From Candidatus Pampinifervens sinense (lineage in GTDB: Bacteria; Aquificota; Aquificia; Aquificales; Aquificaceae): a DNA stretch of 64,000 nt. Below, piece after piece: positions 3,270 to 11,354 of this stretch; the stretch's first letter is position 1; every line of letters begins with the position of its first letter. The notes beneath the pieces were generated by a model, which worked only from the letters and a program-made list of their open reading frames with translations, searched no databases and had not been told where the DNA came from. The position numbers and the translations under genes were made by a program. Location of the stretch: contig JAXSPP010000004.1 in assembly GCA_037927135.1 (NCBI GenBank), positions 99,710 through 163,709 of the forward strand, given 5' to 3'.

Positions 3270-5447
3270 ATGTGGAGAGTGATATATACTGGCCAGAGGC
3301 CACACTATGAGAACATAGCCCTTGATAGGATCATGCTAGACCTTATGGCAGAGAATAAAATCCCACCAACAATAAGGTTTCTGCAGTTCAAGCCAGAATG
3401 TGTTCTTATAGGCTTCCACCAGGCGGTAGAACAAGAGGTAAGGCTTGAATATACTCAAAGGGAAGGTATAGAGGTGGGAAGGCGTATAACGGGCGGTGGT
3501 GCCATATACTTTGATGAAACCCAGATAGGCTGGGAGGTGATAGCCACAAAGGACCATCTTGGGGACCTAAACTACGAAGAGCTTACAAGGAAGATATGCA
3601 CTGGCGTGGCAAAGGGGCTTCAAAAGCTTGGAATAAAGGCGGAGTTCAGGCCAAGGAATGACATAGAGGTGGAGGGAAGGAAGATTTCTGGCACCGGCGG
3701 AGTTTTTGAGGGCAAGGCCTTTTTATACCAAGGCACTGTGCTTATGGATTTTAACGTAGAGAGGATGTTAAAGTCCTTGCAGATACCCGTGGAAAAGCTA
3801 ACCTCTAAGGGGATAAAATCTGCAGAGGACAGGGTAGAGTGGGTAAAGAGGGCTTTGGGCTATCTTCCGGAGAAGGAAAAGGTCTTTGAGGCCATACTCC
3901 AAGGGTTAAAGGAGGAGCTAAACATTGACTTCCAATGGGGAGAGCTGACCGATGAGGAGCTGAGGCTCCTTGAAGAAAAGAAGGACTACTTTAGAAGTGA
4001 GGAATGGATATACCATGTAAAGAAGGCTCCCACCGACAGCGAGATGCTCTTTGGTATATACAGGTGTCCAGGTGGAACCTTTAGGGTCTCCGCCAAGGTG
4101 GACCTTCAAAGCAAAGTCTTACAACAGATTATCATAAACGGAGACTTCTTTGTAAGGCCCCAAAGGCTCATATACGACCTTGAGGCCTATCTAAAGCATA
4201 CGCCCATAAAAGATGTGGAAAAAAGGATAAGGGAGTTTTTCTCTCAAAGAGAATGGGAAGGTCTAAACCTAAGGGTAGAAGACTTTGTAGAAGCTGTCTT
4301 GTTTCCCCTTAGAAAGATAGAAGGTGTGGAACTTGGCATAGAAAAAAAAAGATTGAATAACATAATAGCCTCTATAGGAGGAGGCCTAATAGAAAACCTT
4401 CAAAAGGCAAAGGTTATGCTCCTTCCTTACTGTGCCAAGCCAAGATGGTGTGATTACAGACACCTTGACGACTGTGGTGAATGTGGTGGATGCACCGTGG
4501 GCGATGCCTACAGGCTTGCCTACCAAAAGGGTATGATACCCATAACTATAACTTCTTTTGAACTTCTTAGAGACACCCTTCTCTGGTGTGCCCAAAATGG
4601 CTACACCTATGTAGGCCACTGCTGTTATGAGTTTTATGAAAAGAGGTATGAGATATTCAAAAGGGCTGCGGAAGAAGGTGCCAAGGGTGTGCTTTTTGAC
4701 ATAGTGGGAACCACATGCTACAGCCTTGGAGTGGAAGAGGAGGAAAAAGCCTATCATGGAGAGTTCACTGTGGAGCTGGATCTAATAAAAGAGGATTTAT
4801 ACAAGAGTCTTTCCGTTAAAGAGGATGTGGAAAAGGTAGAAAGACAAAGGGTTGACTTTGACTTCTCGCCATATCTCTTGGAATTCAAGCCTAGCTACTA
4901 CAAAAAGCCAAAGGCTGTGCCTACACCAAAGGAGGATATGACGAGAACTTCTATGCAAAGGGAGGTCTTCTTAGGGGAGGCCACCATTGAGGAGAAAGCG
5001 GTAAGCTATAAAGAGGCTTTGGAGCTTCTTGCCAAATGGATAAAAGAGTCGGAAAGGCCTACCATAGTGCTTGGACCTCTTGTCTTTTGGGACTTTGGAG
5101 AAAGAGATCTTCAAGAAAAGGCAAAGGCTGTGAGAGACCTTATAGAAAAGGTAGGAAGGTTCAACGTTAAAGTCCTTCCAGATTATAGGCCAAAGCTGAA
5201 AAAGTATGACCCTTCTGTGGAGATGGACCCACCAAACCCCCATCATGCCATCTTACATGGCAAGCATGACCTCACCATCCTTGTGGGAGTCCATTGCTAC
5301 AGGACAGACTTTGTTATAAGACTTTTGAGAAAACACACGGATACAAAGATAGCAACCTTGTGTGGCCTATACGGCCATCCTACAGCCCATCTTTCCACTG
5401 CCTTTACCGATGCGCAAAAGATTGAAGACCTGATAAAGCTACTTTAG
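3270..5447 (+). CDS. Lipoate-protein ligase (LplA-type) fused to a Cys-rich DUF116-like domain and a PorD/ForD (CODH epsilon-like) domain
   Basis: RRITGGGAIY, RPRNDIEVEGRKISG, C-terminal GDFF; then LLPYCAK...CGECGGC...HCC; then PDYRPK...VGVHC...LCGLYGH. Confidence 0.85.
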   Translation: MWRVIYTGQRPHYENIALDRIMLDLMAENKIPPTIRFLQFKPECVLIGFHQAVEQEVRLEYTQREGIEVGRRITGGGAIYFDETQIGWEVIATKDHLGDLNYEELTRKICTGVAKGLQKLGIKAEFRPRNDIEVEGRKISGTGGVFEGKAFLYQGTVLMDFNVERMLKSLQIPVEKLTSKGIKSAEDRVEWVKRALGYLPEKEKVFEAILQGLKEELNIDFQWGELTDEELRLLEEKKDYFRSEEWIYHVKKAPTDSEMLFGIYRCPGGTFRVSAKVDLQSKVLQQIIINGDFFVRPQRLIYDLEAYLKHTPIKDVEKRIREFFSQREWEGLNLRVEDFVEAVLFPLRKIEGVELGIEKKRLNNIIASIGGGLIENLQKAKVMLLPYCAKPRWCDYRHLDDCGECGGCTVGDAYRLAYQKGMIPITITSFELLRDTLLWCAQNGYTYVGHCCYEFYEKRYEIFKRAAEEGAKGVLFDIVGTTCYSLGVEEEEKAYHGEFTVELDLIKEDLYKSLSVKEDVEKVERQRVDFDFSPYLLEFKPSYYKKPKAVPTPKEDMTRTSMQREVFLGEATIEEKAVSYKEALELLAKWIKESERPTIVLGPLVFWDFGERDLQEKAKAVRDLIEKVGRFNVKVLPDYRPKLKKYDPSVEMDPPNPHHAILHGKHDLTILVGVHCYRTDFVIRLLRKHTDTKIATLCGLYGHPTAHLSTAFTDAQKIEDLIKLL

Positions 5448-10509: not shown

Positions 10510-10856
10510 TGCCTTGGAATGTGATCGTCAAAAAAAAGTTTAGCTGGGCCCATTTTTTGACAGATTACCATGGTGCGCCAGAACCTGTGCATGGCCACAC
10601 ATGGATTGTAGAGGTGCATATAAGGGTGGACAAGGTGGATGCGGGTGGGATGGGTATTGACTTTTTAGAGATAGAAGAGTTTTTAAAGAAGCTCCTTCCA
10701 GACTATGTGCTTTTAAATGATATTGTGGATTTTTCTCCAAGTGCAGAAAATATGGCAAAATGGATATACGAAAGGGTAAAAGAAAGGTTCCCCACAGTCT
10801 CCAAAGTTTTAGTTTGGGAAAAGGAAGACTGTGGGGCTGAGTATTGGGAAGATTAA
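10509..10856 (+). CDS. queD: 6-carboxytetrahydropterin synthase / PTPS family
   Basis: FSWAHFL, HGHTW, SAENMA, VWE. Confidence 0.85.
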   Translation: MPWNVIVKKKFSWAHFLTDYHGAPEPVHGHTWIVEVHIRVDKVDAGGMGIDFLEIEEFLKKLLPDYVLLNDIVDFSPSAENMAKWIYERVKERFPTVSKVLVWEKEDCGAEYWED

Positions 10857-11308
10857 CAGCTTACACAGTTCTTTTCTTTTGCTTCCCTTGCCTTCTTTGC
10901 CATTTCTGGGTCATAGGCCTTGCCTTGCCAAAGCATTTGATAGACTACTTCGTAAGTGCTTTCTGCAAGCTCTGTCAGCTCTTTGAAGAGCTTTTTAAAC
11001 CCTTCGCTTTTGTGAGACTCTTCATGATCTTCCAAACTTCTCCAAAAGGTGATTATAAGCACTTCCCTATTCTTTAAAGGATGCTCTGTAGTCTGCCCTG
11101 CAGTGGAACCTTCCAAAGAAACACCGCCAGTATTGAGAGCCACAAATCCACCATAAAAGCCTGTGTCTGAGTGGTAGGTCTTTACATACTCACAAAGGTA
11201 AGCCACCTTTTCCGCCACATCGTCCAAGGTGACCCCTTCTTTTAACACCACGTAGTTTATGTTAACTATGGCATCTTCTGGCACATCCACTATATAGTTT
11301 CCATACAT
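10853..11308 (-). CDS. Single-domain sulfur oxygenase reductase-like protein (dimeric alpha/beta barrel)
   Basis: RBS AAGGAGGT; motifs NINYVVLK, YLC, GFYGG, VLIITFWRSLEDHEESH, YEVVY, C-terminal CVSC. Confidence 0.7.
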   Translation of the reverse strand: MYGNYIVDVPEDAIVNINYVVLKEGVTLDDVAEKVAYLCEYVKTYHSDTGFYGGFVALNTGGVSLEGSTAGQTTEHPLKNREVLIITFWRSLEDHEESHKSEGFKKLFKELTELAESTYEVVYQMLWQGKAYDPEMAKKAREAKEKNCVSC

Positions 11309-11322
11309 GGTAGCACCTCCTT

Positions 11323-11354
11323 TTAAGATCATTCCGATATTCTAATATACTTAA
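11323..11354 (-). promoter_or_regulatory. 32-bp promoter/operator element shared with 36530-36561
   Basis: TTAAGATCATTCCGATATTCTAATATACTTAA; 25/32 identical to the RND-operon upstream element. Confidence 0.6.

Follow-up and report, generated by a model that had tools for sequence, protein, structure and literature searches.

In a 64,000-nt stretch of the genome of Candidatus Pampinifervens sinense (contig JAXSPP010000004.1, positions 99,710 to 163,709 of the forward strand; hereafter the window), a lipoate ligase gene at 3270..5447 continues in frame into two further modules, a cysteine-rich DUF116 module and a domain resembling the delta subunits of 2-oxoacid:ferredoxin oxidoreductases. We consider it reasonably probable that the gene encodes a fusion of an sLpl(AB) ligase, DUF116 and a delta-like domain, and that a probable site of programmed slippage within it leads to two isoforms; our confidence is higher for the identities of the modules and lower for the role of the two additional ones. 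New here are a run of nine adenines (A9) at the end of the ligase, flips of reading frame among relatives, and a genus with two genes. Programmed slippage in cellular, non-mobile genes is, to our knowledge, rare; if the reading is true, the locus would add a clear-cut example that brings its own natural controls, namely in-frame lineages, out-of-frame lineages and a two-gene lineage.

A run of nine adenines at the end of the ligase part

The A9 run lies at the point where free sLpl(AB) proteins end, the 361-aa (amino acid) product expected from a run of eight (A8) having about the length of free sLpl(AB). The 1.546-Mb genome contains five A or T runs of at least nine bases against 23 expected from its composition, and none is longer than nine. 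Of the remainder, all four lie between genes, come after a terminator or the end of a tRNA, or consist of a T9 near the 3′ end of a gene, and the A9 at 4342-4350 is the only sense-strand A9 within a long open reading frame (ORF). The sole other in-gene homopolymer of nine in this genome is a sense-strand T9 (G000:C12:6275-6283) in an ORF for a 506-aa membrane protein, 36-44 bases from the end of that ORF, which overlaps the one after it.

Comparison of 52 junctions (the window and 51 related loci) revealed A9 in 47, A10 in one, A8 in one and no run in three. Among the species-representative genomes with the marker, A9 was present in 19 of 20, and every complete single-contig genome examined has it except the run-less G024, which is of the Hydrogenobaculum type. 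The amino-acid context at the run varies (EKKR, DKKKL, LKKKE). Among 36 in-frame orthologs, K359 is encoded by AAA in 33 of 33 sequences, and so is K360, against 255 of 816 codons (31%) at 24 other conserved Lys columns. A synonymous scan over 33 orthologs (Hydrogenobaculum type excluded; 688 segments of 7 codons) placed the top value of synonymous identity at aa 358-364 (0.843; gene mean 0.486, standard deviation 0.073; best elsewhere 0.715). In each of the 40 in-frame loci, the two alternative frames meet a stop after 0-6 codons (in 29 loci, after 1 and 2), and an mRNA of the gene in the window is predicted to give a 361-aa protein ending in EKKD when it carries A8 and a 363-aa protein ending in EKKKIE when it carries A10. 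No A-run of at least eight was found at the joint in any of 19 two-domain relatives (ligase plus DUF116), A+T-rich ones included.

Two of the features by which slippage sites are recognised, a sense-strand run of about nine in a run-avoiding genome and conservation beyond the need of the protein, are present here. Rarity, retention, the choice of AAA codons, the synonymous peak and the stops in the other frames together argue that selection preserves the run for the sake of the DNA or RNA sequence as such.

Relatives in two frames and a genus with two genes

Among shorter proteins, a search recovered 20 clusters of 361-364 aa that share 70-90% identity with the ligase part. Nine related loci carry the gene in two frames, and the break always falls at the A-run that ends the ligase part. 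In every one of the nine, the downstream ORF, open for 362-374 codons, lies in the -1 frame; in eight, a stop ends the upstream frame 0-1 codon past the run, and eight retain exactly A9, the indel lying beside the run and not inside it. A tree built from the ligase part, with 46 rows of which 7 are out of frame, requires six changes to account for the out-of-frame state, and the starred branches force at least four.

All three genomes of genus g6 encode a 671-aa fusion of the Hydrogenobaculum type without the A-run, together with a separate sLpl(AB)-type gene of ~345 aa (46-47% identity). The phylum was sampled with 61 genomes, 33 from the window's family (f1) and 15 and 13 from two others (f2 and f3); no other f1 genome among them was found to have such a separate gene. 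In G024, the separate ligase, whose gene adjoins a FabA-like gene, gives a full-strength match to the catalytic domain (165.7 bits), and the match of the fused ligase domain is down to 45.7 bits. Alignment revealed that the fused ligase domain of g6 has lost its first ~27 residues, the GGG motif, a 13-residue stretch and the SGTGG motif, while its DUF116 module is still 81% identical to that of the window. These sequences suggest that two genes supply g6 with a free ligase and with a long scaffold that is probably not catalytic. With an intact free ligase beside a degenerate fused one, this two-gene state is what A9 would let the other genera make from one gene.

RNA data and the decoding mechanism

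The read data consisted of assembled contigs only, which cannot show transcript heterogeneity. As a hint only, a metatranscriptome contig (X15, 1255 nt, ~94% identical, depth ~8) has one extra A at the run (A10), which is its only gap, and a DNA contig from a different run has A9 and no difference; DNA run X3 is without a contig over 4219-4364, and RNA run X17 covers 3309-3484 only. No stable RNA structure that could serve as a frameshift stimulator was found downstream of A9 (z 0.24). The lack of a downstream hairpin fits transcriptional slippage better than a stimulated ribosomal shift, without being decisive. The most probable mechanism would be slippage of RNA polymerase on A9, a ribosomal -1 shift being less probable, and one gene would then give a free ligase of ~361-363 aa and the 725-aa long form.

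A known system of this kind is dnaX of Thermus thermophilus (tau/gamma), in which transcriptional slippage occurs at a sense A9 in a cellular gene and about half of the product is the shorter one (Baranov et al. 2005, PMC1088944). The two genes have in common the nearby stops in other frames and the expectation of a short and a long product. Unlike in dnaX, the run here lies half-way along the gene at a domain joint, the zero-frame product differs among relatives, and the case is known from sequence. Selection against such runs begins at nine bases in many genomes (PMC1088944). A literature search for lipoate together with transcriptional slippage found no related paper, and the main text of the GeneTack paper, supplements aside, contains neither 'lipoate' nor 'lipoyl'.

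Alternatively, A9 could be without a decoding role and simply belong to a Lys-rich linker that is prone to mutation; a single 725-aa protein would then be made, and the out-of-frame relatives would be assembly errors, pseudogenes or true splits into two genes, the second of them, for DUF116-delta, starting at Met384. We consider this improbable, and several observations nevertheless speak for it and weigh against two isoforms. The complete single-contig genomes checked are all in frame, and the out-of-frame cases are metagenome-assembled genomes (MAGs), some of them possibly errors; one (L074) has A8, the type of change that an error would produce. A conserved Met stands at the start of DUF116, where the downstream part could begin as a separate protein in out-of-frame genomes, and the RNA downstream of the run has no stable structure. 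The two-product reading draws on DNA sequence and a single RNA contig, and that contig, the only RNA datum at the run, is an assembly from a ~94%-identical relative with no DNA from the same sample. A run without a decoding role is difficult to reconcile with AAA at all 66 run codons, with the top synonymous-conservation peak of the gene falling on the run, and with the avoidance of such runs elsewhere in the genome. It also agrees poorly with the out-of-frame loci, eight of nine of which keep A9 with the indel beside it, and all nine of which need the same -1 shift and keep the long downstream ORF open, and with the second ligase gene in the run-less genus g6.

Architecture of the protein and reality of the fusion

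A previous sequence-only reading of the locus had described three modules, and Pfam mapping of the protein from the single ORF called at 3270..5447 on the + strand bore this out (Table 1). The motifs that it quoted (PYCAK, WC, CGECGGC, HCC, TTC, PTIVLGPLVFW, PDYRPK, VGVHC and LCGLYGH) are all present in the translation.

Table 1. Features of the fusion gene, in coordinates of the 64,000-nt window
Feature	Position	Strand	Description
Whole ORF, long form	3270..5447	+	725 aa, comprising an sLpl(AB)-type ligase, a DUF116 module and the delta-like domain
Lipoyl protein ligase catalytic domain	3303..3908	+	aa 12-213, Pfam LplA-B_cat PF21948, E 7.8e-45
LplB-like accessory domain	4053..4298	+	aa 262-343, NCBIfam LplB 45.1 bits (cut-off 65)
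A9 run, candidate slippage site	4342..4350	+	GAA AAA AAA AGA = E358 K359 K360 R361, end of the ligase
Other-frame stop codons	4354..4360	+	TGA 4354-4356, TAA 4358-4360
DUF116 module	4419..4769	+	aa 384-500, eight invariant Cys
Linker, poorly conserved	4770..4946	+	aa 501-559, partly disordered in the model
Delta-like domain	4947..5444	+	aa 560-725; PF02552 match aa 570-717

In the ligase part, Pfam Lip_prot_lig_C matches aa 265-341 weakly (E 0.0045, 17.3 bits against a cut-off of 24), and NCBIfam indicates a lipoate ligase with an LplB-like part, all models scoring below their own cut-offs. The middle module had been called DUF116-like, and this holds by the Pfam match (PF01976, aa 355-427) and the eight invariant Cys, tempered by the score of the window protein, which lies at or under the Pfam cut-off (23.6 bits against 25; 26.2 bits in a six-frame search); two-domain relatives reach 35-46 bits. 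At the C-terminus, CO_dh PF02552 is matched with 115.2 bits (E 3.5e-33, cut-off 21), and the fold agrees with the family match.

Homologues over the full length, 53-93% identical, occur in records of Hydrogenobacter, Thermocrinis, Hydrogenivirga, Aquifex and Hydrogenobaculum, and 30 of the 33 sampled genomes of the window's family have a PF02552 match within such a long frame. Because of these full-length homologues in several genera and the frequency within the family, we regard the fusion as real; the assembly artefact that the sequence-only reading had named as a way of refuting it is contradicted by the presence of the fusion in the genomes of relatives.

A probable sLpl(AB)-type ligase of the lipoate-assembly route

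In its catalytic domain, the ligase part retains the nucleotide/lipoyl-binding motifs RRITGGGAIYFD and GRKISGTGG, which align with a Thioalkalivibrio ligase, P0152, and with cluster-encoded relatives; the Lys is taken to be catalytic by comparison with E. coli LplA. The ligase region, aa 262-343 included, aligns along its whole length with relatives of ~360 aa, the LplB-domain profile scoring below its cut-offs, and the TIGR00545 score is 175.6, below the cut-off of 280. Beyond the family, the unfused proteins closest to aa 1-345 are ligases of ~360 aa from Ectothiorhodospiraceae and Thioalkalivibrio (46-48% identity), the latter being the genus of the characterised sLpl(AB).

Two-domain proteins of ~517 aa consisting of ligase and DUF116, 44-48% identical to the window protein over both parts and with the same eight Cys invariant, are common in Nitrospirota, in Asgard and other archaea and in various MAGs; no mention of them was found in the literature searched. 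They differ from the window protein in having neither the delta-like domain nor an A-run at the joint and in being encoded within a lip cluster. Around ten such loci 103 ORFs were listed, and 53 ORFs from eight loci were scanned with Pfam, leaving aside distal ORFs and the loci L102 and L108 (high G+C, spurious ORFs). A radical-SAM gene adjoins the ligase in seven of the eight, a gene for a geranylgeranyl-reductase-like flavoprotein is present in six and a GCV_H gene in four, and two (L090 and L100, both Nitrospirota) additionally have DsrE genes. By their gene content, these neighbourhoods correspond to the published arrangement lipS1-slpl(AB)-lipT-lipS2 (Tanabe et al. 2023, PMC10332631).

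The genome of the window contains five GcvH/LbpA-type genes, two of them within an sHdr cluster in the order TusA, DsrE, HdrC1B1A, HdrC2B2, LbpA, thioredoxin, DsrE, LbpA, radical SAM. The radical-SAM protein of this cluster reaches the NCBIfam cut-off for LipS1 (230 bits), a second one at another locus has LipS2 as its best match (206.6 bits, cut-off 270), and a LipT-like reductase gene lies on a third contig; the remaining ligase-like genes encode only 262-aa and 217-aa proteins, both without the LplB part. From its nearest relatives, the clusters of those relatives and the set of lip and lbpA genes in the genome, the ORF is best read as the Aquificaceae form of the sLpl(AB)-type ligase, part of an LbpA maturation route whose genes are dispersed here. 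The sequence-only reading had placed a complete LplA beside dedicated LbpA ligases; the ligase part stands, and the relatives and their clusters sharpen the claim, the protein itself probably being of the sLpl(AB) type. As octanoate/lipoate:protein ligase, sLpl(AB) starts the sLpl(AB)-LipS1/LipS2-LipT lipoate-assembly route, by which the LbpA proteins of the sHdr sulfur-oxidation system are served.

The surroundings of the gene count against this assignment, since its neighbours within the window (a two-component system, a DegT aminotransferase, MotAB and a tRNA synthetase) are unrelated to the pathway and the link to LbpA and LipS is one of homology and co-occurrence. Compared with the characterised sLpl(AB) of Thioalkalivibrio sp. 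K90mix and Hyphomicrobium denitrificans (Cao et al. 2018, PMC6067878; PMC10332631), the window protein shares the catalytic and LplB-like domains but has two further domains (~365 aa) and A9 at the end of the ligase, and in this genome it is encoded outside the sHdr/lip cluster. Aquifex ligases were excluded from the assays reported in a 2026 preprint.

Two variants of the fusion were encountered. The end of an Aquificaceae MAG contig (L094:9562-10674) carries a second, more distant ligase-DUF116 copy, 42% identical over aa 30-426; the MAG also holds a fragment of the usual fusion (L085), and the copy may be a paralog or a binning mix. In P0058 (1117 aa), the ligase fusion is longer and contains two stretches of the catalytic domain besides DUF116 and a delta-like domain.

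The delta-like domain and the proposed link to carboxylating enzymes

The C-terminal 166 aa match the two delta subunits of the same genome in BLASTP (35% identity, E 3e-30; 33%, E 1e-27). Together with the PF02552 match, this bears out the homology to PorD/ForD proposed from sequence alone, the motifs named for it falling in conserved columns of the delta alignment; LPDY.P, DPPNPH, G.HCYRTDF and C...GH are invariant in the delta-like domain. That such motifs typify delta subunits of five-subunit oxidoreductases also proved correct. Of the two other PF02552 proteins in the genome, one (237 aa) heads a D-A-B-G oxidoreductase cluster and the other (188 aa) heads a second one with a Uma2 gene between D and A. 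The same cluster layout is found for the 2-oxoglutarate:ferredoxin oxidoreductase (OGOR) and pyruvate:ferredoxin oxidoreductase (PFOR) of A. aeolicus, whose delta subunits were identified by mass spectrometry (PMC10052474). The Uma2-family gene, a putative endonuclease gene within the PFOR cluster (L022:6566-7102 (-), G000:C2), lies between the porD-like and porA-like genes; A. aeolicus aq_1194 has the same placement, and its protein was not found in the enzyme band (PMC10052474).

The two true deltas of the genome are 65% identical to each other. Across the family, identity to the copies in the window's genome is 43-93% for the fused domain and 82-95% for PorD/ForD. In a delta tree of 71 rows from 84 sequences, in which PorD/ForD rows of genomes without an obtained fused sequence were dropped, all 25 fused rows form one clade (Shimodaira-Hasegawa-like approximate likelihood ratio test, SH-aLRT, 100) that a long branch separates from each of the true deltas, and no grouping of the fused domain with PorD or ForD was seen. 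The tree path between G000 and G056 amounts to ~2.2 changes per site for the fused domain and ~0.13 for PorD (summed branch lengths). The delta-like domain was not found in a D-A-B-G(-E) operon, lying at another locus as the C-terminus of a ligase, and its family is small, a search of 1.84 billion proteins having yielded 41 representatives at E ≤ 0.001.

The best structural match of the domain was the epsilon subunit of acetyl-CoA decarbonylase/synthase (ACDS; 1ytl_A, Z 12.5, root-mean-square deviation 2.5, 129 residues aligned), followed by middle domains of thiamine-diphosphate enzymes, sirtuins and transhydrogenase dIII; a sequence search against solved structures gave a marginal match to 1ytl only (E 0.77). 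A sirtuin-like delipoylase was considered because the DHS-like fold matches sirtuins at Z 8-9, and was dropped for want of a supporting feature; a role as LipT replacement was rejected in view of the LipT-like gene in the genome.

By sequence, the domain appears to be a paralog, specific to the family and evolving fast, of the delta subunit found in five-subunit 2-oxoacid:ferredoxin oxidoreductases. It shares the PF02552 fold and motifs with PorD/ForD (H. thermophilus; A. aeolicus aq_1192 and aq_1166), yet it differs from them in forming a separate clade, in tree paths roughly 15 times longer, in its position outside the por/for operon and in its fusion to a ligase. The archaeal ACDS epsilon subunit CdhB (1ytl; 9c0s chain C) resembles the domain in fold (Foldseek E 2e-4) and belongs to the same Pfam family, but has a different partner enzyme and a marginal sequence match. 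A literature search on the delta subunit, narrow in its terms, found nothing. Side observations on this domain were an in-frame stop within the delta-like match at G036:C1:1465284-1465763 (TAA) and at G059:C4:48025-48480 (TAG), the long frames being otherwise open.

The sequence-only reading had gone on to propose a physical or regulatory link between lipoylation and the carboxylating enzymes of the reductive tricarboxylic acid (rTCA) cycle. In such a scheme, the delta-like domain would dock the ligase on PFOR/OGOR in place of or beside PorD/ForD and so couple lipoylation and sulfur oxidation to these enzymes. The homology to the genome's own deltas is real, with PTI..GP, PDYRPK, GVHC and C...GH shared, and deltas are true subunits of the A. 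aeolicus five-subunit enzymes (PMC10052474). P0259 (387 aa), one of the 41 family representatives and a natural fusion of the gamma subunit of pyruvate oxidoreductase (POR) with a CO_dh delta-like domain, shows the fold in use as an oxidoreductase-bound module, and the triple fusion is limited to a family that possesses five-subunit oxidoreductases.

The distribution among the sampled genomes gave a different picture. sLpl-DUF116 is present in 31 of the 33 genomes of the window's family and absent from both others (0/15 in f2, 0/13 in f3), and a homologue of LipS1 has exactly the same counts; the two genomes of the window's family in which neither was found are the same for both, those of genus g8. 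True delta subunits occur in 33/33, 4/15 and 0/13 genomes, respectively, six of these genomes being without the fusion. This pattern points to the lipoate-assembly system and not to the oxidoreductases, with the reservation that, the genomes being related, the co-occurrence with LipS1 represents few independent events.

Docking on PFOR/OGOR is thus opposed by the separate, fast-evolving clade of the fused domain, by its lower identity than that of PorD/ForD within the same family, and by a gene that follows LipS1 and not the deltas. In addition, the searchable tables of an A. aeolicus ferredoxin (Fd7) pull-down, which list selected proteins only, name no lipoate ligase. We regard docking as very unlikely, and the fusion protein would not be a PFOR/OGOR subunit. 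Of the earlier interpretation as a whole, the modules and the PorD/ForD homology stand, whereas the link to the rTCA enzymes is unsupported; the idea of a bridge between lipoylation and the rTCA cycle would give way to that of a borrowed fold, not a shared subunit.

The DUF116 module and a proposed role of the long form

DUF116 is the best conserved module of the protein, with a mean pairwise identity of 0.88 compared with 0.71 for the catalytic domain, 0.63 for the delta-like domain and 0.53 for the linker (here aa 501-574). Its eight invariant Cys are C388, C394, C402, C405, C408, C451, C452 and C483, which include a conserved CxxCxxC motif (C402-x2-C405-x2-C408). The module was modelled as a confident alpha/beta sandwich (predicted local distance difference test, pLDDT, 91.5), whose fold matches are generic Rossmann/flavodoxin-like ones only (Z up to 6.8). 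DUF116 alone gave no Foldseek match at E ≤ 0.001 and no VIA match at Z ≥ 8, by which no new fold is implied, and a sequence search for solved structures of it found none. A flavodoxin-like fold has been predicted for arCOG02078 (DUF116) (Makarova et al. 2015, section 3.6, PMC5898192), and no experimental function of DUF116 was met in the literature found.

A two-domain model of DUF116 and the delta-like domain (pLDDT 85; predicted template modelling score, pTM, 0.75; linker pLDDT <50 at model residues 200-211) suggests that the two domains pack together. DUF116 is an eight-cysteine, flavodoxin-like extension carried by the sLpl(AB)-type ligase in many phyla. In the long form, the ligase or ligase-like domain may hold the acceptor protein, and DUF116 may provide a putative metal or Fe-S site, which, with low confidence, the delta-like domain could hold or cap in the way that Fe-S enzymes are served by true deltas. 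The long form would thereby bring the DUF116 site to the LipS1/LipS2 chemistry on the bound acceptor and help the sulfur-insertion step. Two considerations speak against this proposal: the intramolecular docking is judged by the pTM only, and metal binding is deduced from the eight invariant Cys only.

A redox or oxygen sensor built from DUF116 and the delta-like domain, switching the ligase on or off instead of helping LipS1/LipS2, would also suit a flavodoxin-like fold with eight invariant Cys. The host organisms oxidise sulfur and hydrogen and are microaerophilic, and the delta-bearing five-subunit oxidoreductases are of the oxygen-tolerant type (PMC3578206). Genus g6, however, keeps a well-conserved DUF116 on a chain whose ligase motifs are lost, which leaves no ligase to regulate and counts against a sensor, and the two-domain relatives adjoin LipS and LipT genes; we give a sensor little chance.

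Taken together with the decoding, a wider scheme can be offered tentatively, its chances as a whole being clearly less than even. Aquificaceae would decode the gene of an LbpA-specific lipoate ligase in a non-linear way: slippage on a selected A9 would set the ratio of free ligase to long scaffold, with the zero frame flipped at least four times and one genus using two genes; DUF116 would be an Fe-S module that serves LipS1/LipS2, held or shielded by a delta-like partner, and this would show the general role of deltas. The locus bears on the function of DUF116, a domain present on this ligase in many phyla, on what assists the LipS1/LipS2 lipoyl synthases, and on the purpose of the delta subunit in five-subunit PFOR/OGOR.

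Other genes related to sulfur and lipoate

A 159-aa ORF elsewhere in the window (10853-11332, - strand) resembles sulfur oxygenase reductase weakly; the PF07682 match (E 8.4e-5, 22 bits) falls short of the cut-off and spans about one third of the profile. Directly behind formate dehydrogenase genes and fdhE lies a GcvH/LbpA-type gene (L026:4915-5433 (+), G000:C3), an arrangement that recalls the LbpA1-like gene beside fdh genes in Roseovarius mucosus described in the 2026 preprint. The genome also contains two LipA-type lipoyl synthase genes (G000:C2:160416-161240 and G000:C4:35009-35800; L027 and L028), which score 328.5 and 325.1 bits, above the TIGR00510 cut-off. With this pair, LipS1 and the LipS2-like protein, this small genome has three sulfur-insertion systems beside five GcvH/LbpA-type proteins.

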